From: a virus | Taxonomy: Duplodnaviria > Caudoviricetes | Reading direction: 5' to 3' (one strand) | DNA: 63,472 bases | Virus record (IMG/VR): IMGVR_UViG_3300045825_000308 | Location: 1-63,472 of that record | Part shown: one piece after another, positions 12 to 44,000 of the stretch | Layout: the number at the start of each line of letters is the position of its first letter | Numbering within the stretch: the stretch's first letter is position 1 | Program-made: the position numbers and the translations under genes | The notes under the pieces: generated by a model | Database searches by the model: none | The model's input: the letters and a program-made list of their open reading frames with translations, nothing else | What the model was told of the DNA's origin: nothing

Positions 12-482
12 ATGCTTATGTCTTGGTTAATTAGAAAAGTCCAAGGAATAGATTGTTCACATTGTTATGCTCAATTCACTTCATCAGCTGGAGAAGAATT
101 AGTTTATGAAGCAGAAGGCATGCAAACCCATTTAGTAAATAAAAAACAGTTTATTAAAGGAAATATAGTAGTTAGAGAATATGAGATAGAGGTTAATCCG
201 AAAACTTATGATGATATTAAAGTTTTTATTGAAAGAGATATTGGCGTTCCTTATGGTTGGCTAGAATTGGTTGGATTATTTTTAGTTTTTATAGTTAGAG
301 CTTTTATTGGAAAAACTATTAAAAATCCACTTCCTTCAAAAGATAAGATCTGTTCTGAAGCAGTTGGTTATATTTATGTCAATCATTTAAACGGTAATAA
401 AGATGTAGAATATGATGACATGGATATTGTCTGGTTATTAAATAAAATAAGTTCTGATAGTAGATTTAAAAGAATAAAATAA
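12..482 (+). CDS. permuted papain-like (NlpC/P60, YiiX-type) peptidase/amidase, possibly 5'-truncated
   Basis: SHC near the N-terminus, YEA, G-x-PYG and C-terminal ICSE motifs, i.e. His before Cys. Confidence 0.55.
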   Translation: MLMSWLIRKVQGIDCSHCYAQFTSSAGEELVYEAEGMQTHLVNKKQFIKGNIVVREYEIEVNPKTYDDIKVFIERDIGVPYGWLELVGLFLVFIVRAFIGKTIKNPLPSKDKICSEAVGYIYVNHLNGNKDVEYDDMDIVWLLNKISSDSRFKRIK

Positions 483-813: not shown

Positions 814-1869
814 ATGTACACTTCAATATTAAAAGCAGATGCTTTCTTAACAGTTGATGAAGTAGCTGAATGGTTAGGAATATTTGATCAAATTCAAATA
901 CCAGCCATAGAAGTTAAGTCATTTAAAACTATTCAAGATTTAGTTTATACTTCTAAATTAGTTGGAATTTTAGGAAACGCAATAAGTATTGCTTATACTA
1001 ATGGCGCAACTGCTGGAAGTGAAGTGGTTTCTTTAATAGGAAATGCTATTTCTGTGCAAATAGAAAGTGGAGTATCAACTTCTCTCCAAATCAAAACAGC
1101 TATTGAAAATTCGGTAGCGGCTTTTGCTTTAGTTGGTGTTGCTTATAAACCATTGTCCACAGGCGTTGAAACTCAAGTCAGTCAGGTCACCACTTTATTA
1201 ACAGGTGGAACAAATGCTGGAGTTTGGATCAAAGGTGGAGAGCAAAATCGTAAAATCTTAGAAAGAATTATAAATATTTCTTGCGATAAGATAGAACAAA
1301 TAATTCAGACATCTGTTGTTGCTAAAGATTATGAAGAACAAATTGACGGAAACAATTCAAATGTGATCATGCCTTCTAAATGGCCATTAGTTTCTATAAC
1401 AGAAATTAAAATAGATTACAATAGAGGATTTTCTAGTTCAACTATTGTTAGTCCAGTGAATTATTTTGCTAGAGGATATGCAGATAAGAGACAATTACCG
1501 GGAGACACATCTTTAAGAATTATTGGAAATGATATTATCCTAAGAGATGATGGGAAAGACTCTATTGTTGGAAAGATTTTCAGCGGATCAGTTTTAGGAT
1601 CAATTAAAATAAAATATAAAGCTGGTTGGGCTTTAACTAATGCAGATATTCCATGGGATTTAAGACAAGCAGCAACATTATTGTGCGAATACTATTATTT
1701 TCAAAGAAGTAATAGAGACTTAAACATAACATCTAAAGGTGTTCGTGGAGAATCGTTCACTAAAATAAAAGACGGGATCCCAGATACTATTATGGAAATG
1801 GTTAATCCTTATGCAGATGTTTCAATGCCACTTTACGAAAAATCACAAATTAATGTGTTTGGAATTTAA
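814..1869 (+). CDS. head-tail connector (gp6/gp15-like) with inserted ~100-aa domain
   Basis: LTVDEVAEWLG helix; IKYKAGW...IPWDLRQAATLLCEYYY; IPDTIMEMVNPY. Confidence 0.75.
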   Translation: MYTSILKADAFLTVDEVAEWLGIFDQIQIPAIEVKSFKTIQDLVYTSKLVGILGNAISIAYTNGATAGSEVVSLIGNAISVQIESGVSTSLQIKTAIENSVAAFALVGVAYKPLSTGVETQVSQVTTLLTGGTNAGVWIKGGEQNRKILERIINISCDKIEQIIQTSVVAKDYEEQIDGNNSNVIMPSKWPLVSITEIKIDYNRGFSSSTIVSPVNYFARGYADKRQLPGDTSLRIIGNDIILRDDGKDSIVGKIFSGSVLGSIKIKYKAGWALTNADIPWDLRQAATLLCEYYYFQRSNRDLNITSKGVRGESFTKIKDGIPDTIMEMVNPYADVSMPLYEKSQINVFGI

Positions 1870-2354
1870 TGAAAGTAGTACTCAAAGAAAATATTAAAGA
1901 AGTAGTAGATACCCTCAATGCAGGGAAAACGCAGATTCAAAAGAATTTGCATGTTCAAATGTTTCAGGCTCTGAGCATACTTGAGGCCGCCATTAAACAA
2001 AATATTAGGAACAGGTCGGGGTTAAAAGTTCGCTCAGGGTCTTTGTTAAATTCTATTCAGAAAGATGTAAGTTCTAATGGAAATACTGTTACCGGAAGAA
2101 TTGGTCCAGAAAATATTCCTTACGCAGCGATTCATGAATATGGTGGAACTATTCCGGCTAAGAGAATTGAGCCACGTCATGGAAAAGCTTTAAGATGGAT
2201 GAGTGCTGGAGGAAAGTTTTCTTTTTCCAAAGGCCATGAGATTCCTGCTTTTGACATTAAGGCTAGACCATATTTAGAACCAGCAATAGCAGAAAAAGGC
2301 GAATTGATTAGACAGAACTTTGCTTTATTTATCACTAGGATTATGGAGAAATAA
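1869..2354 (+). CDS. neck / virion morphogenesis protein (HK97 gp10-like)
   Basis: RSGSLLNSI, YAAIHEYGG and ARPYLEPA motifs. Confidence 0.75.
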   Translation: MKVVLKENIKEVVDTLNAGKTQIQKNLHVQMFQALSILEAAIKQNIRNRSGLKVRSGSLLNSIQKDVSSNGNTVTGRIGPENIPYAAIHEYGGTIPAKRIEPRHGKALRWMSAGGKFSFSKGHEIPAFDIKARPYLEPAIAEKGELIRQNFALFITRIMEK

Positions 2355-2849
2355 ATGTTAATACCAATGCCAGAACTAGAAGCAATTCAAGCAAGCGTGA
2401 GTGTTTATAAGTCTAGACGACTAAAAATATTAAAAGCTATCGAGGCAACTCTAAGCACAATAAAAAAAGAAGCTGGATATACTAATACTGTTAACACTGT
2501 TACTTTCGATAGCAAGTCGTGGAGAGACATGGCAGCTCCACAAACTCCAGCCATTTTCATTATAGATGATATGGTTCAGATTAACAGATTTGTCGGAAAG
2601 ACCAGAGAATATACGTGGACTGTAAAATTATTCGGAGTCGTTAAAGAATTTACATTAGAAGAATTTGAAGAACACATAGCAGATATTGAAGAATGTCTAG
2701 AAGACAATAACCATTTAGCTGGAATGGCCGCTAAAGTAGAAGTTCAACAGGTAATAACGGATAACCAAATGTTCGAGAATACAAACAATCGTTTATATGA
2801 AATCGAACTAAAGATAGAATTTATCAGAAGTCTGAATAATCCAAGATAA
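2355..2849 (+). CDS. tail terminator / completion protein
   Basis: size, position between neck and tail tube, PAIFI motif. Confidence 0.6.
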   Translation: MLIPMPELEAIQASVSVYKSRRLKILKAIEATLSTIKKEAGYTNTVNTVTFDSKSWRDMAAPQTPAIFIIDDMVQINRFVGKTREYTWTVKLFGVVKEFTLEEFEEHIADIEECLEDNNHLAGMAAKVEVQQVITDNQMFENTNNRLYEIELKIEFIRSLNNPR

Positions 2850-2909
2850 GCTTTTCCTGTACATATCATAACGTAGACCCATAGTTATTCAAAACAAAGG
2901 AAGAAACGT

Positions 2910-3512
2910 ATGCCAGCATCTAACGGATTTATCCGATCTAAAATTAAAGACTCAGTAAAATTTGCTCAGACTCTTGTGAAAATCTCAGGGATTAAATCGC
3001 AAAAGCCAAACGCTTTTAATGTTGATTATAACGGTAATCGCTTTCATGGCGAACTTATGACCGCTTATAACTTAATATCTGATCCAACTAAAATTACTTT
3101 TAGTTACGGTCCAACAGTAAGAGCTGCAAAAACGATTCAAAATTTAACTTATTCTGCAGTGACTACTGGAATTGGTGGAAACTTAATCTCTATTGCTTAT
3201 ACTACAGGAGCAGTTGCAGGAGCTGAAGTTGTAAGTGTTATCGGAAATGTTATTTCAGTTCAAATTGAAAGTGGAGTATCTACTGCTGCTCAAATTAAGA
3301 CAGCAATTGAATTAGTACCAGCAGCTGTTGCATTAGTAACAATTGCAGTAACTGGTTTAGGAACAACTGCTCAAGTCGCAGCGGTTGCAGCAAACCTTAT
3401 TAGCGGACTTTCTCCTTTAAATTATGAACTTCTTCTTGCTAATATTCGAATTGTTCAAAGAATTAGAAGTAGAAAGTATGTTTTTAAAGCAAATATTTTA
3501 TCAATTGTCTAA
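2910..3512 (+). CDS. virion protein made largely of the shared inserted domain
   Basis: KTIQNLTY...GNLISIAY...GVSTAAQIKTAI segment. Confidence 0.6.
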   Translation: MPASNGFIRSKIKDSVKFAQTLVKISGIKSQKPNAFNVDYNGNRFHGELMTAYNLISDPTKITFSYGPTVRAAKTIQNLTYSAVTTGIGGNLISIAYTTGAVAGAEVVSVIGNVISVQIESGVSTAAQIKTAIELVPAAVALVTIAVTGLGTTAQVAAVAANLISGLSPLNYELLLANIRIVQRIRSRKYVFKANILSIV

Positions 3513-3545
3513 TACTAATTTTAATAATTAAAAAAGGAAGAATAT

Positions 3546-5114
3546 ATGTCAAGAGAATTAAAACGTAGAAGTCATGAGTTTTTAGGAGTAGATCAGAAGG
3601 CGTGGTTAGGTGCTGAAGTCGGTGGTTTCGGCGATCTAGCTGTTACTGGATTGGTTCCAGTTGATGCTGGTGCAGTAGATTTTATTGCATGCGATATCAA
3701 ATTTGATATTCCTAGAGAAGATTCACCAAGCCGTTCTGGTCGATCAGTAGTTGCAAGACTATCTGGTAAGAAAACAGTTGAAGTAAAAGTTGAAGCTCAT
3801 ATTATACCGGGAACACCAGATAATTTAGGAAACCCAACTCTTCCTCCAATGCACCCACTTATCCTTTCGGCTTTTGGTGATGTAGATTTAACAGATCCAA
3901 CGAAAATCCTTTATAAGCTTTCTCGATTTAATGGAAACTCTTCAAGAATATTGGAAGAAGCTACGCATTATTCTAGATTAGCTGTAGGCGTTGTTGCTGA
4001 TAAACTTTCTTTCTCTCTTCCAGGAGACGGTAAAGCACAAATGTCAATGGAAGGTTTTGCACAAGATGCTTATATGGCTGGCGAAACTAATTTGGTTCAA
4101 GCAAATACAGGTGTCGCAGTTGCAGCTTCTAAAGTTATCCAAGATTTAACTTTTACTGCTGACACTGTTGGTATTAATGGAAATCTAATTCAAGTTGAAT
4201 ATTTAGTGGGCGGTGTTGCTGGAGCAGAAGTTGTTACAACAACAGGAAGTAAAATTTCTGTTCAGATTGCAACGGGAGTTTCTACAGCTGCTCAAATTAA
4301 AACAGCCATTGATGCAAACGTTGCTGCTGCATTATTAGTGAATATTGTTGTTTCAGGTGTTGGTTCTAACACTCAAGTAGCCGCTGCAGTATCTAACTTA
4401 TCTGGCGGTCTTGGATTAAATGATATTAAAGTAACTGTTGGTCACGGCTTTAGAATGGAAGTAGAAGCCTATATTGATATCATTTTAGGAACTGACGGAA
4501 ATACCGTTGTAGTCTCTCAAAGAAAAGTTGTTCAAACTTATTCAGGTGTAAATGCTGATATCGTAACTGTTGATGGTGCAGCTCTTCCAGCTACAACTAT
4601 TGGTGATTATGTTATCGGACATGCTCCAGCAAACTATAGTCCTATCGCGTCAGATCAGGCTCTGCTTGGATTGCGCGGGACGTTTACAGTAGCTGGTTTT
4701 GCAATTAGTGATGCAGAATTAATCTCTGCAGAAATTAACTTATCAAACAACTACACTAAAAAAGATTTCCTTTATGGTACAGACAAAATAAAAGGTTTTC
4801 TACCAGATAAGCGAAGAGAAGTGTCTGTTAAAATAGAGGTTCTTTTAAACAAAGAAACCCTAAGTTTCTATATGAGAAACAAACAATTCGTAGCTGAAGA
4901 TTTGACAATCACTTTAGAGCCACAAAGAATCCCAGGACCAGCTTTCACAAGCTCAGTTGGTCGGACCTGGACATTCCATATGCCAAAGGTAGAATTTTCA
5001 ATTCCCCCCATCGAAAATGGAAATGAAAGCTACGTGAGTTTGAGTTTGGAAGGAAAGTGTTTGGCAACTAGTGCTAACTCTTTAGATGATGAATTTACTC
5101 TTCAGATTTCTTAA
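3546..5114 (+). CDS. major tail tube protein with inserted domain
   Basis: directly upstream of chaperone and tape measure; tube-like C-terminal pattern (EINLSNN...RREVSVKIE...TFHMPKVEF); followed by terminator. Confidence 0.75.
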   Translation: MSRELKRRSHEFLGVDQKAWLGAEVGGFGDLAVTGLVPVDAGAVDFIACDIKFDIPREDSPSRSGRSVVARLSGKKTVEVKVEAHIIPGTPDNLGNPTLPPMHPLILSAFGDVDLTDPTKILYKLSRFNGNSSRILEEATHYSRLAVGVVADKLSFSLPGDGKAQMSMEGFAQDAYMAGETNLVQANTGVAVAASKVIQDLTFTADTVGINGNLIQVEYLVGGVAGAEVVTTTGSKISVQIATGVSTAAQIKTAIDANVAAALLVNIVVSGVGSNTQVAAAVSNLSGGLGLNDIKVTVGHGFRMEVEAYIDIILGTDGNTVVVSQRKVVQTYSGVNADIVTVDGAALPATTIGDYVIGHAPANYSPIASDQALLGLRGTFTVAGFAISDAELISAEINLSNNYTKKDFLYGTDKIKGFLPDKRREVSVKIEVLLNKETLSFYMRNKQFVAEDLTITLEPQRIPGPAFTSSVGRTWTFHMPKVEFSIPPIENGNESYVSLSLEGKCLATSANSLDDEFTLQIS

Positions 5115-5137: not shown

Positions 5138-5166
5138 AATAGGACGTGAAATATCGTCCTATTTTT
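5138..5166 (+). terminator. rho-independent terminator
   Basis: AATAGGACG/CGTCCTATT stem followed by T tract. Confidence 0.8.
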
Positions 5167-5184
5167 ATTTTAAGGGGATCACAA

Positions 5185-5652
5185 ATGAGTATTAAATTTT
5201 TAAGTTTCTCAACAATTCTTCCAGCAGTATCAATTTCTGATGATGCTATTGATAAAGAAAATTCCGACATCAAAGCTTATCAACAAGATTATGATGTAGC
5301 GCATTTAAAATTTAAAGAAGGATTGACCCCTACTTATTTTAACTTATCAAATGTTCCTGGTCCAGATTTAGTCATTATTCAGCAAGATCACTACATAACA
5401 GAATTGCCAGAAATCAAAGCTGGAATGTCTATGGAAGAAATGCAAAATCTGAAAGTCAGTGTAAAAGCTGTTAATCAGGGAATGATGCTAGTTAAGTATT
5501 TTAAAGCGGCATGTAAAACAATTACTGATAATGGTAAAACCATTGAAGTCAATGAGGAAGTTTTAAAGACAGTTCCTCCAAGTGTCTTGCAAGAAATCGG
5601 AAGTTTTGCAATGGCCAGAACAATTTTGAGCGATAGTAAAAAAAAATCTTAA
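5185..5652 (+). CDS. tail assembly chaperone (G-like)
   Basis: between tube and tape measure; AAGGGGA RBS before ATG 5185; ends in an A9 run. Confidence 0.75.
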   Translation: MSIKFLSFSTILPAVSISDDAIDKENSDIKAYQQDYDVAHLKFKEGLTPTYFNLSNVPGPDLVIIQQDHYITELPEIKAGMSMEEMQNLKVSVKAVNQGMMLVKYFKAACKTITDNGKTIEVNEEVLKTVPPSVLQEIGSFAMARTILSDSKKKS

Positions 5653-6035
5653 AAACTTTAACAGATATGGTTCTGGAAAATAAAAAAGCCAGAACCTTTG
5701 ATTGTCAAGAATGCGATTATAACCTTCAAATTCAAAGAAATTGCAACAACCAATATTCTCCAGCTAAAATCATCCTTAATCAGAATCTTTATACTCAATG
5801 CCCTAAATCAATAATATCTAACAATAGAGAGTTACGCTATCTGGTAGACACCTATTTTGAATGTCGAGAAAACAAGAACTATCCTATTCCAGGCTCTATC
5901 TATAATCAGACAGCTTTTACAGTAGAACTTTTTGACTTTTTAGATGATATTGTAAATAACTATAGGAATCGCAAACATCAAGAACAACTAAATCAAGTAA
6001 ATCAATCCAACAAAGATAATAAGTTAAGGAAATAG
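5640..6035 (+). CDS. tail assembly chaperone -1 frameshift extension (T-like), Cys-rich
   Basis: -1 frame is open from the A9 run (5638-5646) to 6035; no clear RBS before ATG 5667. Confidence 0.7.
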   Translation, partial: KKILKTLTDMVLENKKARTFDCQECDYNLQIQRNCNNQYSPAKIILNQNLYTQCPKSIISNNRELRYLVDTYFECRENKNYPIPGSIYNQTAFTVELFDFLDDIVNNYRNRKHQEQLNQVNQSNKDNKLRK

Positions 6036-6039
6036 CTTT

Positions 6040-9000
6040 ATGTCGGAAAAAGAAGTAAAATTAATTCTGACAGCAGAAGATAATATCTCTGATGTTATTA
6101 AGAAGGTTTCAGACCATTTAGGGGCTTCTGGATTAGGTCAAGCTATTACTGCTACCTCTACTGCTTTCTTGGCTATCAAAGGCGCTGCAGAAGTCGTTGG
6201 AACTGCTCTAGAAAAAGTCAATGCCATTGTTCAAGAAGGTATTAATGATGCAGCTAATGCAGAATTAGTTAATAAAAGACTAGCTATTTCTATGGCAAAT
6301 GTTGGAGATTATACAACAGAATCTTTCATAGCTATTAATGAATGGGCCGGAGCTCTTGAAACTGCTAACGGAATTTCCGATGAAGCTATTAGAAGTCAAG
6401 TCTCTTTAGGTCTTCAATATGGAATGTCTACTGAGCAAGCTAAGAAAGCAACGCAGGCAGCTATAGATTTAGCTGCTGCGACTGGCACAGACATGGAAAC
6501 AGCTTTCCGTCAATTGTCTATGACTTTAGATGGATCTGCCGGAAGAATGGGAAAATTTATTCCAGAACTTAGAAATCTAACTAAAGAACAATTGCAAAAT
6601 GGCGATGCAATAGATGTTATTGCTAAAAAATATAATGGATTTTCGGCGCAAACAGCTAACACTTATGCTGGAGCACAAAGAAAAATTGAATCAGAAATAG
6701 GAAACGTTAAAGAAGCATTCGGAAGATTGATTGCACAAAATCCTGCATACATTGCGAGCATGCAATCTAAAGCAGCAATGATTCACAACGTCTCTGAAGA
6801 GGTGGATAAATTATCAACCTATCTTCTCCAAAACGGAACGGCAATTGGGAACATGGCAAAAGCTGTTGGAACAACCGTTGCAATTGTTGGTGCATATTAT
6901 GCTGGAATAAAATTAGCAGCACTTGCTCAGACAGCGTGGGCTAGTTCAACTATGGTAGCAACAACAACTCAGAAGGCATTAGAGCTTCAAACTATAATGA
7001 CAACCTCAACTGTTAGAGCTCAAGAGATAATGGACAAAGCGTCAGCAGCAGTCAAAGCAGTTTTATCTGGACAAGTTCTTTCACAGATAGTAGCAGAAAA
7101 ATCTTTACAAGGTTCATTGATTGCAGGATTAGTAATTCAAAAAGCAAGACAAGCAGCAGACACTGCAATGATAGCAATCAAAGGAATGCTATCTGCTGAG
7201 ACCATAAAAAATACAGCAGTAGAGGCGGCAAATAAAATTGCTCTTATTGCATCTAATGCAGCAACAACAGGAATGGCAAGTGTTACTGGTTTTCTGTTAG
7301 CAGCAAGACAAGCTTTGACTTTAGAAAGTTTAAAAAATACAGCAGTCACAATTGGAAATACAATTGCACAAGCAGCAGCAGCGGTTGCAACTGGAGCTCT
7401 TGCTGTAGGAATAGGATTAGTAACTGCCGCACAGTGGGCTTTGAACATTGCACTTAACGCTAGCCCAATTGGATTGGTTGTTATAGGTGTTGCTGCTTTA
7501 ACTTATGCAATCTATAAACTTTATCAAAACTTTGATTTAGTTACTGGTGCCATTAAGATGGGATTAGGAAAAGCTTTAGAATGGATCATGATTCCGTTAA
7601 GTGCTTTGATGAGTGGTGTTGGAACTTTAATTAGCGCTTTTAATGCTGACTGGGGCAAAGCAATTGAGACAGCATCCGCTAGAATGAATAGTTATGCTTT
7701 AGAGCTTCAGAAATCTGGTCAAGCGCAAATGGATTTAGCTAATAATACTAAAAAGACAGGCACAGAACTATCAACGATGGGGTTAACTGCCGCAAGGGCT
7801 ACTGATGGTATTTCCGCAAAAATGGCTGCCGCCGCACAAGAGATAGCTAAGTTGCAAAATGCATTTGGAAAAGCGATGGAAGGAGCTCAGACTGCCTTTT
7901 CAGCCTTAAAAGACCTTTCTCCAAGAATGTCTTTAGACATGTTTAATGTCGATGCAAAAGCTTGGACAAAATCTATTGAAGATTTGAAGAAAAATGGTGC
8001 TGATTTAAAACTTAAATTAGGATTGCAACCTCAAGACGCAGCTGTTAAAGCTGAATTAGAAAAAATTAATCAACAAATAAGTTATGCTGAAGAAGCAACT
8101 AAAGCTTTGAGAATTAAAAAATCTCAAGAAGTTCGCGGTGCAACATTAAAAGAAGAAGAAATTAGATTAGCTCAAATTAAAGATAGAGAGCTTTCAGTTT
8201 CTGGCGAAATCATGATGATGCGCATCGATAACGTTAAGGCTATTCGTGATCGTTCTATAGCTATTGAGACAGAAAGAATATTAAAGAGCAGAGGACTCGC
8301 GTCTCAGGATGCTCAAGCCGGTGTTTCAGTTAAAGAACAAGCCTGGATGGATGCTAATGCAAAAGAAATGTCTGCATTTAATAATCATTTAGAACTTCAA
8401 AAACAAACAGCTGTTGGAGTTGAAGCTCAAAAACAATTAGCGCTTGCATCTCTTAAAGCATCAGCAATGAGTGGAGATACAGCTGGCGGAATGCAAGCAA
8501 AAAACGATGTCGAAGTTCAACAAGCAACAGATAGGGCCGCTATTTTAAAGCAGATGAAAGACTCTGATAAAATAAGCGAAAGTGATTATCAAAATGAATT
8601 AACAGCGATTCGTATTCAAGCAATGACTTCTAGAACTAATATGGAAGTTGCTTTAAATACTCAAAGAATTGCTCAATTAGGAATTTCACCAGAAGCTCAA
8701 CAGATAGCAATAGAAAATGCTAAAATACAAAACGCAGCGGAAGAAGATATTCTTAGAGAAAAATACGATAATACTGCAATGACAGATGAAGAATTTAAAG
8801 CTGCAGAATTAGATAGAGAATTAACGCACAAAGCAGCACTAACGGCTATTGAAGATGATTTCTCTAAGAAGAGAGAAGACAGGGACTTAAAGAATGGGGA
8901 CAAGTGGGGCGCTTTCTTAGAGACTAAAGCTAGATTAACTAGAGACAACGGAGCTGTTATTGGTTCAATGATGGCTTTCCAACAATCAGAGTATGGTAAG

Positions 9001-9540
9001 ACATTAGATAAAGGATTATCTGATGCATCAACTTTAATGGGCTCTAAAAATATTGAGATGTTTAAGATTGGTCAAGCAGCAGCGATCGCTCAAGCAGCCA
9101 TTCAAATTCCTATGTCAGCAATTAGCGCTTATACTTCTATGGCAAGTATACCAATCGTTGGTCCTGCTTTGGGTATTGCAGCAGCTGCAGCGGCTATTGC
9201 AGCGGGAAGTATGAACATTGCTAAAATTAAAGCGCAAAGACCACCTGGTGGTGCGGCCCATGGAGGAATGGATGAAATTCCGAAATCGATGGATAATAGT
9301 TCATTTATTTTGAAGGCCGGAGAAAGGGTTGTTGCACCGAATCAAAACCAAGACCTAGTTAAAGCAGTAGATAAAATTAATAATGGTGGAGCTAGTGGAC
9401 ACACTGTAAATATTTCAGTCAATGGTTCAGCAGATTCTAGCACTATAGAGAATATCAAACGAGCTGTAATGGATGGACTACGCGAGGCATCTGAACGCGG
9501 TGTGCCAGTTATCAATAGTCGCGGCATAGTAAACGCTTAA
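6040..9540 (+). CDS. tail tape measure protein
   Basis: 1166 aa, Ala-rich and helical; TAAQWALNIALNASPIG motif; C-terminal AHGG...LKAGERVV. Confidence 0.92.
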   Translation: MSEKEVKLILTAEDNISDVIKKVSDHLGASGLGQAITATSTAFLAIKGAAEVVGTALEKVNAIVQEGINDAANAELVNKRLAISMANVGDYTTESFIAINEWAGALETANGISDEAIRSQVSLGLQYGMSTEQAKKATQAAIDLAAATGTDMETAFRQLSMTLDGSAGRMGKFIPELRNLTKEQLQNGDAIDVIAKKYNGFSAQTANTYAGAQRKIESEIGNVKEAFGRLIAQNPAYIASMQSKAAMIHNVSEEVDKLSTYLLQNGTAIGNMAKAVGTTVAIVGAYYAGIKLAALAQTAWASSTMVATTTQKALELQTIMTTSTVRAQEIMDKASAAVKAVLSGQVLSQIVAEKSLQGSLIAGLVIQKARQAADTAMIAIKGMLSAETIKNTAVEAANKIALIASNAATTGMASVTGFLLAARQALTLESLKNTAVTIGNTIAQAAAAVATGALAVGIGLVTAAQWALNIALNASPIGLVVIGVAALTYAIYKLYQNFDLVTGAIKMGLGKALEWIMIPLSALMSGVGTLISAFNADWGKAIETASARMNSYALELQKSGQAQMDLANNTKKTGTELSTMGLTAARATDGISAKMAAAAQEIAKLQNAFGKAMEGAQTAFSALKDLSPRMSLDMFNVDAKAWTKSIEDLKKNGADLKLKLGLQPQDAAVKAELEKINQQISYAEEATKALRIKKSQEVRGATLKEEEIRLAQIKDRELSVSGEIMMMRIDNVKAIRDRSIAIETERILKSRGLASQDAQAGVSVKEQAWMDANAKEMSAFNNHLELQKQTAVGVEAQKQLALASLKASAMSGDTAGGMQAKNDVEVQQATDRAAILKQMKDSDKISESDYQNELTAIRIQAMTSRTNMEVALNTQRIAQLGISPEAQQIAIENAKIQNAAEEDILREKYDNTAMTDEEFKAAELDRELTHKAALTAIEDDFSKKREDRDLKNGDKWGAFLETKARLTRDNGAVIGSMMAFQQSEYGKTLDKGLSDASTLMGSKNIEMFKIGQAAAIAQAAIQIPMSAISAYTSMASIPIVGPALGIAAAAAAIAAGSMNIAKIKAQRPPGGAAHGGMDEIPKSMDNSSFILKAGERVVAPNQNQDLVKAVDKINNGGASGHTVNISVNGSADSSTIENIKRAVMDGLREASERGVPVINSRGIVNA

Positions 9541-9550
9541 GGAATAATAT

Positions 9551-10363
9551 ATGACTTTAAATAGAACATCAATAGCTTTTTTGCACACATTTGATTTAGG
9601 CAACCGTCATATTGTGGATCCTAATCAAAATATTCTTTCAGTTACATCAACAGCGGCTGGAGATTTTAATGTTAATAATATTTTAACAGAATCTACCAGA
9701 AGAGTGTGGAGAAGCGCGACAGCGTTAACAGAACAATCTATTGTCATTAAAGCAGAAAAGAAATCTACTATAGATTGTTTTGCTATTTTAGGTCACAACT
9801 TTACTGATACCGCAGTAATAAAAGTTCAAGCTAATATCTCCAATAACTTCTTAGTTCCACCGGTTACTAGATATCTTGCATGGAATGAATATATTGTAAT
9901 GAGCTCTTTGACTTTTGGTGGAGAATATGAATATTATAAAATATCTATTTTAGATCCAGCAAATCCTTGTGGATATTTAGAAATAGGTAGAATAATTGGA
10001 GGAAGGGCTCTTCAGTTAATTGATAATGAGGATATCACAGATTCTTATTCAGTAGGTAAAAAAGATCTATCAGAAACTATGAAAACTGAAGGATATTTTA
10101 GAGTATCTAATGAGAATATTATAGCCAGAACTTTCAGTGCAAATTTTCAAAAGATCTATACAACAACTGGTTTTGATACTAATTATAAAAATCTGATAAC
10201 CATGTTTAAAACAGTTAAAGTAACTAAACCTTTCTTAACTATTTTAGACGTGAACAATCCTTATAAGTTTAATATCTGGGGACAACTAACAGATATTCCA
10301 GATGATGCTTTTGGGATAAATGATTTTGTCAACTTTCCGTTAAGAATTGAGGAAGTCTTTTAA
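9551..10363 (+). CDS. distal tail (Dit-like) protein
   Basis: follows tape measure; AILGHNF, YLEIGRI and terminal IEEV pattern. Confidence 0.55.
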   Translation: MTLNRTSIAFLHTFDLGNRHIVDPNQNILSVTSTAAGDFNVNNILTESTRRVWRSATALTEQSIVIKAEKKSTIDCFAILGHNFTDTAVIKVQANISNNFLVPPVTRYLAWNEYIVMSSLTFGGEYEYYKISILDPANPCGYLEIGRIIGGRALQLIDNEDITDSYSVGKKDLSETMKTEGYFRVSNENIIARTFSANFQKIYTTTGFDTNYKNLITMFKTVKVTKPFLTILDVNNPYKFNIWGQLTDIPDDAFGINDFVNFPLRIEEVF

Positions 10364-10438: not shown

Positions 10439-12859
10439 ATGAGTCAGGCACTTTTTTTAAATCCTTTTGTTCTTACACCGGCTGCATTGACTGGTGGGTC
10501 TGTCGGCAATGGTACTCTGACAATAAACAAACTAACGCATTTTACAATCAATCAACAATATACGGCTGTTTGTACTTCAACAAGTCCTTTTACTGTTTTT
10601 AATGTGGTTGGTCAATTTGACGGAGCAGTCGGTGTTGCAGTTGTAGGAACGCAATTCAGTGATATTGATTTAAAAGTTTTCTTAACTATGCAACAAGGAC
10701 CAACACTTTTTGCCATTGGCGATACATTTAATTTTGAAGTGGCTCAAGGGACAGATGTAACGCAGCAAAATTTAGATGCTTATGATGAACTTCCTCAAAA
10801 GAATTTTGGTGTCGGACAAACTGGGTTAAATAAAGGCGATCATAACTTAAGATTCAACTCTGCTCCAACATCAGCTAGCAAAACTATTGGCAATCTTCAT
10901 TATGTTTCAACTATAGCTGGACCATTAGGTAATGGAATATCTATAGAATATGTTGCTGGATCCTATCTGGCAGCTGCAAACAGAACTATTCAATCAATTC
11001 TATATACTGCGAATGCTTCTGGCTCAGCTGGAAACAATATTCAAATTCAATACGAAGAATATACTCCATCAGTTAAAGCAATAGCAACAATTCAAAACAT
11101 TAGTTATAGTGCTGACTTGGGTGGCACTAATGGAAATCTAATAAGTATTGCCTATACTTCTGGTGGAACAGCGGGAAGTGAAGTGGCTACGGTAGTTGGC
11201 AATGCGATCAGTGTTCAAATTCAATCAGGAGTTTCTACCGCTAATCAAATCATGATTGCCATTGGTTTACACGCACCGGCTGCAGCTTTAATTGATTATA
11301 TTCCGACAGGTACTGGTTTAGAAACTCAAACAACGCAATCAGCTATATTCTTAGTTGGTGGCGTGAATGCTATCGGTGATGCGGGACATGAAGTCATAAC
11401 TGTTATAGCAAACTTAATCAAAGTAAAATTTCAGTCAGGTGTTTCTACTGCTCAACAAATTTATGATAAATTAATGGCTAGTGTTCCGGCCTTGTCGTTG
11501 ATCTCTCCAACTATTACTGGTGTGCCAGCAAGTGTCCAAACAGCTCCAATCGGACCTTTAAATCTTCAGAATGGAACAGATGTTTTAGGTGATCCAGGGA
11601 ATGAAATAGTAACTGTTCTAGCAAATGCTATTAAAATTACTTTTATTAATGGAGCCTCTACAGCAACTCAAATACGAGCTAAAATATTAGCTACACCAGC
11701 AGCTGTGGCTTTGATTACTGTTGCACTAACTGGAACAGGATCTGAATTACAAGCTTCACCAGTAGCCACAACTTATTTAAGTGGCGGCAGAAACACTGGG
11801 ACATTTGCTTTTAACGAAACAGAGTTAACAGCTCCTGGCACTTTCTATGAAGGGAACGCATCAGTTCTTTTAAAAGATATTGTTGTTCAAGGAAACGATT
11901 TTACTTTTGGTGAAACTGTTAAGCAGGGCAAAGTTACTCTTAATGACGATGTTGTTCTTAATGCACCTGGTCCTTTGATTGATAATGCACAAAAAACTAT
12001 TAATAATCTTATTCAAAATGGAAAATGTTTCTTAGTTTCTGCGTTAGACGCTAAGACAGAATGGAGTAAACCAGCTGGAACTCTTCTTTTAAATGGTGAT
12101 ATTGTCTTAGTATTTGCTGAAACAAATATTAAAAATACTCTCTTAATGTCTGCTGGTCCATTTACATTAGCAGATGGCGAACATATTTACTTTGTTGCAG
12201 ATCGTTATAGCAATATTAATGTTACTCCTGTGATATCCACAACAGTTCCAAATTCTCCAAATAGTGAAAATATTTTCCGATTAGTTTCTAGAGTTGGAAC
12301 AACTCTTTATTGGTGGGATAACACTGCCCAAAGAGAAGGTAAGAAAATCAGAATTGGAGAGGGCGGAAGTTCTGGTGCTTGGCAGGAAAAATTAGGCGTA
12401 GGAAATGGTGCTAATTTAAATTTCCCTATCTTAAGTGGCTTCTTTCCAATAGCTCAAGAATCTATATTAGTTTTTTCTAATACAACACACTTTGTTACAA
12501 CTGAGTGGACTTACAATGTTATTCAAAATCAAATTGAATTTGTCACGGCTCCAGCAATTGGCGTAGAAGTCTATGTTTATTTCTTAACAGATGGAGACAC
12601 TATTGTTGTTCCATCACCGTCTGGTGTTCAACAAGTTCTTTATCATACTTTAACAAGTTTAGAAGTGACCAACAAATATTTAACTTTGTCGGTAGCTCCA
12701 GCGGTTCCTGCTAAGGTTTTAGTAGACTACGTTGGAGGAACATCTCAAGTTTATGGAACAGACTTTTCGATAACTGGTGCTATTTTTAGTTGGCCAGGAT
12801 TAGGATTAGAAGTATTAGCAGCTGCAGGAGATATTATCAGGATCGTGTATCAAGCATAA
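10439..12859 (+). CDS. tail protein with three nested copies of the shared domain
   Basis: beta-rich; three N-halves followed by three C-halves. Confidence 0.7.
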   Translation: MSQALFLNPFVLTPAALTGGSVGNGTLTINKLTHFTINQQYTAVCTSTSPFTVFNVVGQFDGAVGVAVVGTQFSDIDLKVFLTMQQGPTLFAIGDTFNFEVAQGTDVTQQNLDAYDELPQKNFGVGQTGLNKGDHNLRFNSAPTSASKTIGNLHYVSTIAGPLGNGISIEYVAGSYLAAANRTIQSILYTANASGSAGNNIQIQYEEYTPSVKAIATIQNISYSADLGGTNGNLISIAYTSGGTAGSEVATVVGNAISVQIQSGVSTANQIMIAIGLHAPAAALIDYIPTGTGLETQTTQSAIFLVGGVNAIGDAGHEVITVIANLIKVKFQSGVSTAQQIYDKLMASVPALSLISPTITGVPASVQTAPIGPLNLQNGTDVLGDPGNEIVTVLANAIKITFINGASTATQIRAKILATPAAVALITVALTGTGSELQASPVATTYLSGGRNTGTFAFNETELTAPGTFYEGNASVLLKDIVVQGNDFTFGETVKQGKVTLNDDVVLNAPGPLIDNAQKTINNLIQNGKCFLVSALDAKTEWSKPAGTLLLNGDIVLVFAETNIKNTLLMSAGPFTLADGEHIYFVADRYSNINVTPVISTTVPNSPNSENIFRLVSRVGTTLYWWDNTAQREGKKIRIGEGGSSGAWQEKLGVGNGANLNFPILSGFFPIAQESILVFSNTTHFVTTEWTYNVIQNQIEFVTAPAIGVEVYVYFLTDGDTIVVPSPSGVQQVLYHTLTSLEVTNKYLTLSVAPAVPAKVLVDYVGGTSQVYGTDFSITGAIFSWPGLGLEVLAAAGDIIRIVYQA

Positions 12860-18600: not shown

Positions 18601-19275
18601 ATGTATAAAATATTAAAAACTTGTACAAAGTGTAAAGACATTAAGACTATTGATATGTTTTATAAAGACAGAAAAAAAATAGATGGATTATGTTCCCACT
18701 GTAAAATGTGCAAACAAATAGCTAATAAAAAATGGATAGATAATAATCCAGAAAAAATGAAGCAGTCTACTAATGCATGGATAGAACGTAATAAAAGCAG
18801 ATTTTTACAAAAATCTAGAGATTATTATTATAACCATAAAGAAGTTGCATTAGCTAAATCAAAAGAATATGATAAATTAAATAGAGCGACAAAGAGAATT
18901 TATAGTTTGAATTATTATAAAAATAATCCAGACAAAATGAAAAATTATCATAAAAAATCGTATCAGCGAAATAAAGAAAAAATTATAAAGCGTAGCAACC
19001 TAAGACATGTTCTAAAAAGAAAAAGTAGTATCATTTCGCAAAAATTAAATATGATTGGTGAAATTACTTATATATATACATTAGCTAAGTTTTTATCTAA
19101 GATATTAACGATAAGAGTTTCTATTGACCACATAATCCCCTTAAAAAACAAATTTATTTGCGGGTTAGATGTGCCATGGAATATGCAGTTATTAGAATTA
19201 AGAGACAATATAAGCAAGAATAATAAATTTGATGGAACTTATAATAATAGTGGATGGTGCAATCATGTTATATAA
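18601..19275 (+). CDS. HNH homing endonuclease
   Basis: N-terminal CxxC...CxxC; IDHIIPL...CGLDVPWNMQLL...N..KNNKF. Confidence 0.85.
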   Translation: MYKILKTCTKCKDIKTIDMFYKDRKKIDGLCSHCKMCKQIANKKWIDNNPEKMKQSTNAWIERNKSRFLQKSRDYYYNHKEVALAKSKEYDKLNRATKRIYSLNYYKNNPDKMKNYHKKSYQRNKEKIIKRSNLRHVLKRKSSIISQKLNMIGEITYIYTLAKFLSKILTIRVSIDHIIPLKNKFICGLDVPWNMQLLELRDNISKNNKFDGTYNNSGWCNHVI

Positions 19276-25511: not shown

Positions 25512-25796
25512 ATGTTTAACTTTTGCATTGTATTGAATACTGCTCCATTTTATGTGTTGGCTCAAAATGAAAAAGATTTAGAAGAAATTCTAAAAGTTTA
25601 TGAAGGTAAAATTTCTATTGTGGTCAAAGCAAAAGATTTAGAAGTAATGGAATTTAAAATGCAAATGAGTTTGTTTTCTAAAAATACTCTATTAATTCCG
25701 ACAGTGGTCGAAGAAACTCAAGATGCTTTAGCTAAAATGATTAATGCTTCTGAACAAGATGAATTAATTTATGAATTAACTAATGATATTAACTGA
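25512..25796 (+). CDS. hypothetical protein
   Basis: AAGGA RBS; last gene of the tail operon, convergent overlap with the helicase. Confidence 0.6.
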   Translation: MFNFCIVLNTAPFYVLAQNEKDLEEILKVYEGKISIVVKAKDLEVMEFKMQMSLFSKNTLLIPTVVEETQDALAKMINASEQDELIYELTNDIN

Positions 25797-26657
25797 TTTG
25801 CCGTATACTTCTTTAATGATGCTCATTCTAGCTTTAGAGTGGGCAATTAAATTCTTCTGACCATTGTCTATAAAGTCAAAATAATATCCTACTTGTTTGT
25901 TTTTAAAATTTCTCACAACTCTTCCACACTTTTGCATTAATTCAGATTCAGCTTTACCACCACCACAATTAATAATAGCTCCAGCTGCTTTAGTATCAAC
26001 GCCTTCACCTAAAACATCTGTTCCGATTAAACAAGGAATTTCTAAATTATTAAACTTTTTTACCATTTGCATATTATAAGATGCAGATTCATCTTGACCA
26101 TTTAAAAAGACGGCATCCTTTCCAAGGGCGCTTTGCAATTGCCTTCCATGGCCTATGTGTTCCACTAATATAATTGTCGGAACATTATTACGAATCATTT
26201 TTTTAGCTGTTTCAATAACAATTGCATTTCTAGCTTGATTGTTATCAATAAATAAAGGCACATCGCTTTTATAATTCTTCTTAGAAAGAATCTTTTTATT
26301 TGGCATATCAAAGAAAAAACTAACTAACGGTTTAATATATCCTAGATTGATAGCCTCTATAGTGGTAACAGAATATAAGGTATCACTTAAAACAGATTCT
26401 AAATAGATATTAGAATTAGGATCGTTTTTAAAATTCGTCGCTGTTAATCCATACCGATAATAGATTTCCGATAATCGATCGGCAAAATCAATTCTAACGC
26501 CTTCAGCACCAGAATTAGACGTTAAAATACCTTCAGCAACATAGTTATGATTATCTTCAACTGTTATATCATAGACCCACTCATCTGCTGAATCAACCTC
26601 TTCAATACTAATAATTGTTCCTTTGAGTAGTTCTCTGGTATCCTGACAATTTTCCAT
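25776..26657 (-). CDS. SF2 helicase C-terminal part preceded by a 48-aa C-intein
   Basis: VYDITVEDNHNYVAEGILTSN/S; GLTAT, EGVD and QKCGRVVR motifs (III, V, VI). Confidence 0.85.
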   Translation of the reverse strand: MENCQDTRELLKGTIISIEEVDSADEWVYDITVEDNHNYVAEGILTSNSGAEGVRIDFADRLSEIYYRYGLTATNFKNDPNSNIYLESVLSDTLYSVTTIEAINLGYIKPLVSFFFDMPNKKILSKKNYKSDVPLFIDNNQARNAIVIETAKKMIRNNVPTIILVEHIGHGRQLQSALGKDAVFLNGQDESASYNMQMVKKFNNLEIPCLIGTDVLGEGVDTKAAGAIINCGGGKAESELMQKCGRVVRNFKNKQVGYYFDFIDNGQKNLIAHSKARMSIIKEVYGKSVNIIS

Positions 26658-27361
26658 CCAATGCTTCCTAGTCTTATTTCTTTGCGTAAATCTTGTGCTT
26701 CTCTTCCTTTATGCGATGTTCCATCAACTTCAATGCCTATTTTTAAATCAGCATTAGCTAAATCTATTTTATAATTTCGTGGAAATTCACCATCTTTTAA
26801 ACCAATAGCAACTTCTGCTTCAAAGTTTTTAAAAATATCTAGCAAATAGATTTGAGTTGGCGTTAATGCACCACCATTCCCATATGTTCCACGACCAAAA
26901 GGATTATAAGAACCATCAGCAATTTTAGATTTTATTTTTAAAGATTGTTTTGATCGTACTTCGATAGAACGGTTTTTATTTGCCAGCGCAATTATTTCTC
27001 TATGTTTTTTTGATTTGCAGTTTTCTTGCCTAGTTTTAGGGGCAAGTCCCATAGTAAGTTTATCTCCAATTTTCATTTGTTCAATTCTAATCTTCCCATT
27101 ATCAGTTAAAAACTTATGATTTTTTGTTACTATAAATTCTTTTATATTTCCATCTTCATCTTGAACCCTTACTTTTAACATTTTGGGGGGAGCAGGATAT
27201 CTCATAGCATTTATAACTAATTTAGATTCCCATGCTTTACCGTTCCACGATATTACTTTTGGCTTACTGCCGTTATGAAATAACTTATAGATCTCTTCAA
27301 TAGTGCGAGTCTTATATGATTTTGATTTCGATCCAGAAATTTTAGTAAGTGGTGTAAAACA
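26514..27361 (-). mobile_element. intein spanning two reading frames, with endonuclease
   Basis: Cys1 codon at 27361; terminal Asn codon at 26516-26514; +1 Ser restores DEFHHSGA. Confidence 0.85.
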
Positions 27362-27985
27362 ATGATGGAACTCATCAAATATCAATTGAGAAAACTGCTT
27401 AAAGTAATTCGGATCCTTCGATGATAGAGCATGAAAATTCGTAACTATGATTGGCTTATCATGATGAACTTTTAATAATCCAACATCATCTGTTCCGAAA
27501 GATTCTGTTAAATACTCATAAGTCTGTTGTCGAAGATTTCCTGATGGTGTAATGATTAGCGTTGGTCTTTGAGTTCTAATAAGAGCTTCTTTAATAACTC
27601 TGCTTTTTCCAATACCAGTTGGCATTTCTAAAACACCGCTTGTGTTAGTTGCAATAGCATGAGCTCCAAGAATTTGTTCAGGATATAAAGGTGGTTCAAT
27701 TAATCTGTCAATTAAATTAATAGATTTGTGTTTGGGGATGATTCTGTTATCGGCAATATTAACCGGAAGATATCGTTCATCAAAATATTTGCTTACCCTT
27801 TTTACTAAGCCTGTTGGAAAATATCCATCTTCATCTATCAATAGAGTTGTTGAGGCATATCTATTTTTAGTTCTGATCCACGTTGACATGTTAAAATAAC
27901 TTACAGTCATTCGTAAGTTTTTAAGTAAGGATTTATCTAATCCAACAACACGAGACATAGAATTATTTAAAATTATCGTTATCAT
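26564..27985 (-). CDS. SF2 helicase N-terminal part + N-intein + Vsr/EDxHD-like endonuclease
   Basis: MPTGIGKS; DEFHH/CF; VTKNHKF block B; IDLA...IEVDGTSH. Confidence 0.85.
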   Translation of the reverse strand: MITIILNNSMSRVVGLDKSLLKNLRMTVSYFNMSTWIRTKNRYASTTLLIDEDGYFPTGLVKRVSKYFDERYLPVNIADNRIIPKHKSINLIDRLIEPPLYPEQILGAHAIATNTSGVLEMPTGIGKSRVIKEALIRTQRPTLIITPSGNLRQQTYEYLTESFGTDDVGLLKVHHDKPIIVTNFHALSSKDPNYFKQFSQLIFDEFHHCFTPLTKISGSKSKSYKTRTIEEIYKLFHNGSKPKVISWNGKAWESKLVINAMRYPAPPKMLKVRVQDEDGNIKEFIVTKNHKFLTDNGKIRIEQMKIGDKLTMGLAPKTRQENCKSKKHREIIALANKNRSIEVRSKQSLKIKSKIADGSYNPFGRGTYGNGGALTPTQIYLLDIFKNFEAEVAIGLKDGEFPRNYKIDLANADLKIGIEVDGTSHKGREAQDLRKEIRLGSIGWKIVRIPENYSKEQLLVLKRLIQQMSGSMI

Positions 27986-41082: not shown

Positions 41083-44000
41083 ATGAAAAAGTTATTTATA
41101 TGGATTTCAGATGTTCACCTTTCAATTAAAAATCTAACAGTATCAATCCAAGTATTAAGAGAATCTTTAGAATTAGCGAGGAACAGAAATGTTCCTCTTG
41201 TTATATCTGGAGACTTAAATGATGGAAAAGCAATCATGCGATCTGAATGGGTATCTGCTTTAATTAATTTGTTTGATGAGTTCGTTGATGTTAAGATTTA
41301 CGTCTTAACCGGAAATCACGACATGGATAATAAAAATTCTAATACTCATTCATTAGAATTTCTCAAACCAATTAGAAATGTTGTTATCATAGATAAACCA
41401 TCAGTTCATTATGTTTCAGGACATCCATTCTTTTGTATTCCTTATTGCATAAACACTGATGCTTTCAAAGATGCTCTTAATCAAGCACGGGCTAATGGAA
41501 TTACAAAGGTTATCGCCCATCAAGGTGTGCTCGGCGCGTCAATTGGCGACTATTTAGTTGATGAATCTTCTGTTAGTCCAGAAGAGTTTGCAGACTTTGA
41601 TATTGTTTTACTTGGTCACTACCATAAATTTCAAAGAAATCTAAATTATATTTACTGCGGCTCGCCATTCACAACAAATTTTTCAGAAGCTGATCAGATA
41701 AAGTTTATCCATGAAGTTGATATGGATGAGCCAACCGGTATTTTGCTTCTTGCTCATCATGAAACTAATGTCAGAAGACATGTTAAATATTTAATTGAAT
41801 CAGATGAAGACTTGTCAAAGATTAAGAATATTCCATGTTCACTTGCACAAGTTGTTATTAAAGGTGATAAAGCATTTATCAAAAAATATAGCGATATAAC
41901 TTTGATGAAACAATTATCTGGAGCAGAATCTATTTCTATCATACCAGAAATTAATCGTCAGTCAGAACATAGAATTTCTGCAGAGATTCTTCACTCCCCA
42001 CTAAAAGTTATTAATCACTATTTAGACGATGCTAAAACTATTTTAGATAAAGAAAAATTAAAAGATTATCTCTTTAACGCTGCTCAAGATTTATTAACCA
42101 GTTTTTCTTCCAACACATCTAAAAGTTTTAATATCACAAGAGCAACTGCTAAGAACTTTCTTTCTTTCCAAGAGTTAGATTTTACTTATTCTGCTATGGG
42201 ATTAACTTTAGTAGAGGGCTTTGATGAAGATAAAATGATAAATACCGGCGCTGGAAAATCAAGTTTCTTTGATGTAATAGTTTATGGATTGTTTGGACAG
42301 ACTTCAAAAGATATTAAAGCTGATGAAGTTATTAACAGAATTGCAAAGAAAGATTGTGAGATTGCTATTTATTTATCTGCTAATGATGGTGATTATATTC
42401 TATATAGATATAGAAAACATTCTAAGTTTGATAATGATTTGTTATTAGTTTTGCCAGATGGAAAAGAATTAAGAGGAAAAGACAATAGAGAAACTCAAAA
42501 ACTAATTGAACAAGAACTAGGTTGTAGTTGTGATTTATTTTTGAAGTCTTCTTACTTCACACAATTTGGTGCGATTGACAGATTTCTTTCAGCTTCTGAT
42601 ACTGAAAAGAAGAAACTCATTTCTGACATCACTGATCTATCTATCTATGATAACATACTAGAAAAGGTTAAAAGTGCTTTAAGATTGAATCTGGATGTCC
42701 TGAATGGCCAAGAAAAGGAACTTCTCAAGGTCCAGTCTTCTTATGATACAACTCATCATCATCTGGCACAAGATAAGGTTAACAAAGATCAATGGGAAAG
42801 TTCTCACAATATTAAGATAAACAATCTTAAGGTTAGTCTGAATAATTGGAATAATGATCGAGATGCCGAATTATTTAATGCGCGCAATCAAGAATTAGAA
42901 TATGAAGTTCAAAGACAAAAGAATATTGACTGGGCCTTAAAACTTTCTCAGGACTTTGATATAAAAATTGGACAAGAAGTTTTAGTTTTAGAAAAAGAAC
43001 TAGAAACTTTTGAACAAAGTAAAGCTTTAGCAATTCTAGCAATTGAAGAAAAGATTACACAAAATCATAATCACAGTTTAGAACTTAAGAAGCAGATTGA
43101 TCAATTAGAGCTTCAAAGAGGTTCAGAACAATTGTTGGCCGACTTATCAGAAGTTAATAAAAAATTAGATATGATTGAACAGCTTCAAGCTAAAGCAATG
43201 AAGATAGAGCATTCTGATATTGCTTTGATTGATTCTCAAATAAGAACTTTGCAAGGCAAAATAAAATTAGAAGAAGAAAAATTATCTGTTAATGCAAATA
43301 GCACTTGCCAAAGCTGTCATCAAGAAATTTCTCCATTCGCTATTAAAAATGTTATCTTTGATATGAATACTGATATTCAAGTTCTAGAGAAGCAAAGACT
43401 TCCTTTAGTTGAAAGTTTAAAAGATATCAGGGCAATGACAGAAAAGAAAGGAATAACTCTTGCGGCTAAAGAAACTATTCAAGATGCAATTGCTAAGTCA
43501 AGAGCTGTTGATGATGTGATCAGATCAAAGTCTAATGAAATGACGTCTCTTCATAATGCACACAAAAATCTTGTTGCACAAAAAGAAGAGAAAGAACTTC
43601 AAAAGTCTAATGCACCATATCAAATTACTATTGTTAGACAAAAAGTAAACCCTTCTTCCAAAGAGATTGAAACCCTTAAGACAGCTTTAAATCCATTCAC
43701 ACAGCAGATGGTTACTCTCCATAATCAGATAAATCCTTTTATAAATTCTATTAAGATTGAAGAGGAAACTATTAATCCTTTTATTAATTCTGTTAAGGAA
43801 AAGGAAAGCGATTTAGCTATTCAACAAACTAAAGTTGATGCAGCTCAATCTGATGTGAATAAAACTAGTCTAGACATTACATATGGCGAATGGTGGAAAC
43901 AAGCCCTGCACGTCTATATCAAGTCCTATTTAATGGATTCATGTCTTGACCAGATTAATGATTACACTAATGAATATCTGCAAACTCTTTTTGATGGCGT

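Follow-up and report, generated by a model that had tools for sequence, protein, structure and literature searches.

A repeated domain in four proteins of a phage neck-tail module

The window analyzed here is the whole of IMG/VR record IMGVR_UViG_3300045825_000308, 63,472 bases of DNA from a tailed virus (Caudoviricetes), whose first 14 kb form a neck-tail module in which one domain of ~100 residues recurs in four proteins, all encoded on the + strand. The first host is a head-tail adaptor/head completion protein of 351 amino acids (aa; 814..1869) recognized by phrog_442 (E 1.9e-12, aa 149-338), in which copy 1 occupies aa 31-135 (904-1218; hidden Markov model (HMM) E 4.5e-49). Copy 2 lies at aa 65-167 (3102-3410; HMM E 5.2e-49) of a 200-aa protein (2910..3512) encoded between the tail terminator and tube genes, for which Pfam and PHROG scans gave no family. 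Copy 3 spans aa 187-290 (4104-4415; HMM E 1.6e-47) of the 522-aa tail tube protein (3546..5114; PF18906 Phage_tube_2 and phrog_290). Copy 4, placed by the HMM at 11057-11371, is the innermost domain of a predicted nested array in an 806-aa distal tail protein (10439..12859) encoded downstream of the tape measure gene and a Dit-like gene.

A phmmer search seeded with adaptor residues 31-132 was run over all 419 open reading frames (ORFs) that six-frame translation of the window gave at a minimum length of 40 aa. Only four ORFs were matched, with E-values of 1.1e-57 for the adaptor itself, 1.2e-37 for the 806-aa protein, 6e-25 for the 200-aa protein, and 1.5e-18 for the tube. The same ORFs were recovered at 2.6e-77 to 2.8e-46 by an HMM of all four copies, and the next ORF of the window had an E-value of 1.6. 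In the protein alignment, the copies are 47-57% identical to copy 1 and share 33 invariant columns; at the DNA level they are 56-64% identical, and the longest exact word in common is 15 nt. Because the DNA has diverged to this extent, the copies are read as old paralogous modules, produced neither by a recent duplication nor by an assembly artefact. The original prediction, made from the sequence alone, had placed the domain in the adaptor, the small protein, the tube, and the gene starting at 10439, internal to each host; these observations confirm a repeated ~100-aa domain, all four copies are internal, and the intervals then proposed (904-1209, 3117-3407, and 4119-4409) fall within the HMM envelopes.

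Orthologs with and without the domain

Orthologs of the adaptor (n = 45) were the proteins found with its insert-free part, and those of the tube (n = 94) were the proteins found with its N-terminal 190 residues. The domain is present in 29 of the 45 adaptors (340-453 aa) and missing from the other 16 (239-269 aa); it is present in 57 tubes and missing from 37 (412-424 aa). One relative in these two sets bears a Bacteroidota metagenome-assembled genome label, a lead only as to possible hosts. In the adaptor alignment, residues ~34-136 are missing as a single clean block from 252-aa orthologs (P0198, P0205, P0209, and P0210) that are otherwise 61-67% identical overall, and in the tube alignment, residues ~186-291 are missing as a single block from orthologs (P0233, P0234, P0243, and P0240) that are 75-80% identical overall. 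The phrog_442 match of the adaptor falls outside the insert. A profile of the adaptor orthologs found the head completion protein 8hqo_R in the PDB (E 2.5e-4); PF24163 (head completion protein) gave 19.4 bits on the window adaptor, under its cut-off of 27, and is precomputed on all 45 orthologs. For the tube, the match to PF18906 reaches 28.9 bits over aa 353-504, above the gathering cut-off of 27; a tblastn search against 50,697 deposited phage genomes gave no match, and a tube profile search of PDB sequences gave nothing.

The small protein follows the same pattern. In two IMG/VR loci (L047 and L048) where gene order is wholly kept at 60-73% aa identity, its syntenic orthologs are 96 and 99 aa long and lack the domain, with the indel visible in the alignment, and the domain is likewise missing from their adaptors (252/269 aa) and tubes (416/415 aa). 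In both loci, the nested triple is still present in the 806-aa homolog. The combinations also vary singly: of the three genes, locus L050 carries the domain in the tube only, its adaptor being without it, and two further contigs apparently carry it in the adaptor and not in the tube. Neither Pfam nor PHROG, sheath families included, matched the 96- and 99-aa orthologs at E<=1, and Pfam and PHROG searches with the 96-aa core and the flanks of the 806-aa protein gave no match better than E 0.027. Since close orthologs of the adaptor, the small protein, and the tube lack exactly this segment, it is a dispensable insert and not part of the core fold. The portability and dispensability anticipated in the original prediction are thus borne out by orthologs at 61-80% identity. 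Its placement of the adaptor insert between the first two helices fits an alignment in which the insert separates two conserved segments, and the adjacent termini it proposed would follow from the clean indels together with the nested model described below.

A variant was seen at the position of the 200-aa gene in L044 (8314-9345; on the contig of L029), where a 344-aa protein has one half of the domain at aa 56-88 and the other at aa 230-297 (the a- and b-halves defined below); the ~140 residues between them are unmatched by the domain HMMs and may represent a degenerate or foreign insert in the loop joining the halves.

A tree of tube cores (93 rows, domain removed, unrooted) requires at least five changes of presence or absence, three of them forced by well-supported branches. 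Thirteen insert-free tubes group inside a clade of 41 rows, the remaining 28 of which have the domain, and a single carrier falls within an insert-free clade of 20 rows. As the tree is unrooted, gain and loss are formally indistinguishable; one and the same site seems to have undergone both, or else recombination between alleles.

The domain resembles the outer domain of contractile sheaths

An AlphaFold2 (AF2) model of the tube copy, built on an alignment of 31 copies, had a mean predicted local distance difference test score (pLDDT) of 95.4. The modeled domain has strands at residues 6-12, 15-22, 30-34, 43-47, 50-54, 79-83, and 94-98 and helices at 24-28, 62-71, and 73-76. It divides into an N-terminal half (a; β-hairpin, short helix, strand) and a C-terminal half (b; β-hairpin, two helices, two strands). 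Conserved columns are mostly glycines, core hydrophobic residues, and an S-T-x-x-Q helix cap. The single-domain model is predicted to share the fold of solved sheath outer domains (3HXL, 3LML, and 9GB1). In a Foldseek search of the PDB with this model no row reached E<=0.001; the first seven rows were the sheaths 3LML and 3HXL (probability 0.77-0.91; template modeling (TM) score 0.51-0.54). Sheaths accounted for 9 of the top 11 rows for the single domain. With the nested model of the 806-aa protein, 11 of 13 among the matches listed were sheaths.

Sequence profiles point the same way. PF17481 (Phage_sheath_domII) matches 20 of the 31 copies weakly over the full profile length, with a best E-value of 3.6e-4 and all scores under the gathering score of 31.4 bits; the window tube copy scores 10.5 bits, with residues 1-102 on profile positions 1-96 of 98. 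A search of PDB sequences with the domain profile gave nothing significant, the best rows being an enolase (E 0.15) and sheath 3hxl (E 0.66). The domain had no Pfam match to Big_2, FN3, or I-set, and the helices at 62-71 and 73-76 mean that the model is no all-β immunoglobulin (Ig) sandwich. No RNA polymerase chain appeared among the structure-search matches listed, a list that leaves a relation to the HABAS/sandwich-barrel hybrid motif (SBHM) possible. From these sequence and model comparisons, we conclude that the domain is a divergent branch of the sheath outer-domain lineage, outside current models, in line with the likeness to sheath insertion domains noted in the original prediction. In sheath families, the insert resides near residues 90-200; its hosts in the window are instead an adaptor, a small protein, a tube, and a distal tail protein.

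Occurrence in other virion proteins

Scanned against IMG/VR, the four-copy alignment matched 35 loci; against a genome collection, it matched only two, both in metagenome-assembled genomes. Within the Phage_tube_2 family, the domain occupies two sites. It lies near the N-terminus (approximately profile position 20) in L009, L014, and L021, and mid-protein (approximately profile positions 131-141) in the window, L029, and L033; the N-terminal part of the L029 tube matches PF18906 positions 1-141, and the insert is thus near positions 131-141. Other carriers include SU10-type adaptors (L010 and P0017), proteins annotated as tail sheath with the domain at aa 57-203 (L017, L036, and L038), and large proteins of 900-1800 aa. 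Tandem arrays of up to 12 modules occur. The proposal that the module had spread over unrelated virion proteins therefore extends beyond the window to tube N-termini, SU10-type adaptors, sheaths, and large fiber-like proteins.

A profile of the 31 copies was searched against 1.84 billion proteins and matched 4152 representative clusters (50% identity) at E<=1e-3, of which 1908 reached E<=1e-10. Among short carriers, 70 of 84 had no PHROG match at 1e-5, and the matches that were found were mostly to "tail sheath" families over the part equivalent to the module. Partial matches to phrog_279 "tail sheath" (~90-230) and phrog_8757 "virion structural protein" (~107-220) likewise coincide with the module. 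Such matches may reflect the module alone, so that proteins other than sheaths could be mislabeled as sheaths.

In a tree of the domains, N-terminal tube copies form a well-supported clade of their own, separate from mid-tube copies. The four copies of the window are not monophyletic: that of the tube falls with its tube counterpart in L033, and the adaptor copy pairs with the inner copy of the 806-aa protein with moderate support (90/78). With 14 of 28 inner branches unresolved, no donor copy can be named.

A predicted nested array in the 806-aa protein

Copy 4 of the 806-aa protein is flanked by half-units that the original prediction had not seen. Two a-halves precede it, a1 at 10871..10963 and a2 at 10973..11053, and two b-halves follow it, b2 at 11378..11575 (HMM positions 38-102, E 2.4e-12) and b1 at 11594..11794 (HMM positions 39-104, E 1.1e-13). 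The order of units is therefore a-a-[ab]-b-b, in which a2 and b2 would form the N- and C-terminal parts of a middle domain, a1 and b1 those of an outermost domain, and copy 4 (a3b3) the innermost. An AF2 model of aa 130-465 (19 sequences) had a pLDDT of 92.2 and a predicted TM score (pTM) of 0.68; in it every a-unit is modeled as strand-strand-helix-strand, and every b-unit shows the elements of half b. Sheath outer domains of ~100 residues, taken singly, aligned 80-96 residues over model spans 81..183, 47..253, and 12..328, which is the prediction made by A1[A2[A3B3]B2]B1. Collectively, these results support, at the level of prediction, three domains nested one within another. The array is kept in the homolog of every relative whose locus reaches this gene.

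The a/b order was read more widely by cutting the profile at the a/b loop and scanning the best 150 of the 4152 representatives. Equal numbers of a- and b-units were found in 93, and 90 of these form balanced-bracket strings, compared with 24.5 expected at random order. Maximum depth among the balanced strings is 1 in 33 proteins, 2 in 24, 3 in 31, and 4 and 6 in one protein each; a depth of at least 2 is reached in 57 of the 150 proteins, which fall into 17 clusters by non-domain sequence. These strings, read with the AF2 model, are consistent with recursive self-insertion, that is, a domain split repeatedly by a complete copy of the same family. The longest series is that of P0037 (969 aa), with eight a-units back to back (aa 11-262; one at E 0.028) followed by eight b-units (aa 261-805), an order that apparently implies an eight-level nest.

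Other arrangements were seen among the carriers. In four proteins (P0038, P0063, P0064, and P0128), there seems to be a second split site after the first b-half hairpin (b positions ~22-26) and before the main helix, giving a pattern of a plus short-b followed later by long-b. Three giant carriers, P0041 (3886 aa), P0065 (5977 aa), and P0179 (5619 aa), contain 5-24 domain stretches each, and two of them have strings of 17-18 a-type matches without recognizable b-halves, perhaps a truncated repeat variant.

The 806-aa protein belongs to a family with 31 related representatives (655-1867 aa), conserved over the N-terminal ~450 aa and variable in length at the C-terminus. Its flanks gave no Pfam or PHROG family, and a PDB sequence search gave nothing. 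The pattern of conservation suggests a fiber or receptor-binding protein bearing the nested triple as a side projection. In L023 (5371-10893), a homolog of 1841 aa keeps the a-a-[ab]-b-b array. Close to its C-terminus, at aa 1589-1688, it also has a C1q-type domain (PF00386, 4.1e-15), which a receptor-binding tip would be expected to carry.

Gene context

The record has a CheckV completeness of 56% and a G+C content of ~33%, and nearly all of its genes lie on the + strand. Within the neck-tail module, the adaptor gene is followed by genes, all on the + strand, for a Neck1/tail completion protein (1869-2354; phrog_5, 1.7e-9) and a tail terminator (2355-2849; a weak phrog_5078 match, 9.4e-4); a search for relatives by means of the tail terminator returned 0 loci. 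Beyond the tube lie, again on the + strand, two putative tail chaperone genes (5146-6035; 168 and 122 aa), which sit 15 nt apart ahead of the tape measure gene and are kept in relatives, the putative tape measure gene itself (6040-9540; 1166 aa), and a gene of 270 aa in the Dit position (9551-10363; phrog_8610, 5.1e-16). The names chaperone, tape measure, and Dit were assigned from size and gene order; synteny of the region from the chaperones to Dit is kept in loci L045-L051. Fiber-like genes come after the 806-aa gene. No PF04984 sheath core was found in this 56%-complete record, and together with the gene order, this suggests a non-contractile, siphovirus-like tail.

The remaining genes of the window are for replication, recombination, nucleotide metabolism, terminase, and lysis. 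An endonuclease VII-like gene (18601-19275; phrog_1035, 3.4e-18) lies amid structural genes, right after a 1500-aa ORF of the tail-fiber region. The only minus-strand block of the window contains two overlapping ORFs of 293 and 473 aa (25776-27985) that match adjacent stretches of one DNA helicase family (phrog_16 positions 404-615 and 235-396) and may be a split or frameshifted helicase. At 41083-44382, a single ORF of 1099 aa, SbcD-like over aa 1-344 and SbcC-like over aa 198-1098, appears to be a fusion.

Proposed function and alternative explanations

The reading that we favor, with a probability of roughly 0.7, is that the domain is an independently folding sheath-type module, carried as an optional surface insert and nested in the distal tail protein, where it probably serves as a non-essential decoration. 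A module of ~100 residues from the structural lineage of the outermost domain of contractile sheaths would fold on its own, and splicing it in frame into a surface loop would leave the host fold undisturbed because its two ends meet. It would have been placed in this way in the head-tail adaptor, the small protein between terminator and tube, and the tail tube, and three times over in the distal tail protein, each later copy entering the a/b loop of the previous one. By analogy with sheaths, each virion may display many copies of the module on the exterior of its neck, shaft, and tip. Its most likely role would be weak, multivalent adhesion to host or environmental surfaces, lateral bracing, or both, and nesting would yield a rigid projection of adjustable length whose chain returns to its starting point. 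Adhesion and bracing have both been proposed for additional sheath domains (PMC9230969).

Bracing on its own is the first alternative. The module might mainly be a structural brace through which neighboring subunits or rings make contact and the neck and tail are stiffened, with no binding outside the virion. The same paper on sheath evolution (PMC9230969) raises the possibility that extra sheath domains act as cement for the assembled tail, pointing to contacts seen in phage 812; domain2, inserted in the tube protein of YSD1, adds a large intra-ring interface (PMC8718954); and the domain is conserved in the manner of a scaffold. However, phages with near-identical tubes and adaptors lack the module, so bracing is not needed for assembly, and ring-to-ring bracing is implausible in long fiber-like proteins and in tandem arrays of up to 12 modules. 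We regard a purely structural role as unlikely, though worth keeping in view.

A second alternative derives the copies from a lost contractile sheath, with the 200-aa gene as the decayed sheath gene and the source of the other copies. That gene does lie between terminator and tube, where a sheath gene would be expected, and its domain is of sheath type. A structure search of the ESM Atlas with the 200-aa protein placed a tail sheath cluster first (TM 0.55, 133 aligned residues); this is a lead only. Feature scores were <0.8, and structure matches at TM ~0.5 went to M14 peptidases and flagellin-containing clusters as well as to the sheath cluster. The domain-free orthologs of the small protein, which match no sheath family at E<=1, argue instead that the module was inserted into a small unrelated protein. 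No sheath core was found in the record, and the copy kept in all relatives whose locus reaches it is the nested triple of the 806-aa protein. A sheath remnant is therefore very improbable. Equally hard to credit is recent spread within the genome by a duplication burst, gene conversion, or a selfish in-frame element (intein-like or miniature mobile): the four copies do lie within 11 kb and the adaptor copy does pair with the inner 806-aa copy, but recent duplication was rejected on DNA divergence, the window copies are dispersed in the domain tree with the tube copy beside that of L033, and the mature reading frame retains the insert, which shows homology to a structural domain.

Several points weigh against the decoration reading itself. 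The nested topology comes from one AF2 model (19 sequences, pTM 0.68), read via alignment ranges only, and 60 of the 150 a/b strings are unbalanced, although one added unit would balance 39 of these. Exposure on the virion exterior is argued from the sheath analogy and from dispensability, and adhesion or decoration from analogy as well. The conserved residues speak for a scaffold and name no binding site. In a record of this completeness, a sheath gene could formally lie elsewhere in the genome.

A broader version of the decoration reading, which we hold with somewhat less confidence but still consider more likely than not, treats the module as a "matryoshka" block. Any copy could host another in its a/b loop or in the second loop, and recursion from two to at least eight levels would build graded rigid projections on fibers, adaptors, and other virion proteins, and the same module would be swapped in and out of tube, neck, and sheath as an optional coat. 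If true, this would amount to widespread recursive self-insertion of one family, and exchangeable modules of the phage surface would gain a new class next to the Ig-like domains. Accounts of how phage surfaces are decorated have mostly dealt with Ig-like domains and carbohydrate-binding modules; to these, a large and essentially unannotated family is added here, one that connects contractile-sheath outer domains with necks, fibers, and tails that do not contract. For each of three genes, a natural series of near-identical phages that have or lack the insert offers a ready-made experiment on the role of decoration.

Comparison with known systems

The closest relative of the module is the sheath outer domain itself (PF17481), as in DSY3957 (3HXL), Lin1278 (3LML), and the sheaths of phiCD508 (9GB1/9G8S) and phage 812. 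The lineage appears to be the same, but the window copies sit outside any sheath. The sheath protein gp18 of T4 is built of domains inserted one into another. Searches of the open-access literature gave no description of self-nesting of the sheath domain, and no paper that reports a module of this type outside sheaths or in nested form within a phage protein.

Exchangeable Ig-like modules, which Fraser et al. reportedly surveyed in 2006, are a second point of comparison. Ig-like decorations (Big_2 on lambda gpV and T5 pb6) are likewise small, dispensable, and exposed; phages exchange them, and they are attached to the tube as well as to other proteins of the virion. Tails still form when such decorations are removed, and the Ig-like domains of lambda gpV, T5 pb6, and YSD1 are C-terminal appendages (PMC8718954). 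The window module, by contrast, is internal and self-nesting, and its predicted fold is α/β with two helices. The inserted domain2 of the YSD1/chi tube is also a β-rich domain within a siphophage tube protein, but it is described in PMC8718954 as fixed and as building the intra-ring interface, whereas the window module is optional, being missing from 37 of 94 tubes, and uses two sites in the Phage_tube_2 family.

The best functional analogy is with the carbohydrate-binding modules of lactococcal 936 phages. There too, one kind of module occurs on the neck, the tail shaft (major tail protein), and the tail tip (Dit) of a siphophage, and host binding was shown for two of the modules (PMC6669499). 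No relation in sequence or fold to the window module was found.

For the nesting, the nearest precedent is the cyanobacterial RNA polymerase β' insertion Si3. As described in PMC13114784 and PMC11515920, host and insert are of the same HABAS/SBHM family in an A1-B1-C-B2-A2 arrangement, and recursive self-insertion reaches six levels. Si3 is an unrelated protein with no fold relation seen, and the present case involves at least 17 host-sequence clusters of virion-type proteins and apparently up to eight levels, beside plain tandem arrays. The nested copies would thus represent a second, independent, and apparently deeper instance of recursive domain self-insertion, relevant to protein evolution and to the engineering of insertion-tolerant scaffolds. 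Inserted or appended tube domains and recursive self-insertion were already known separately; what is new here is an optional coat module that appears to nest in itself.

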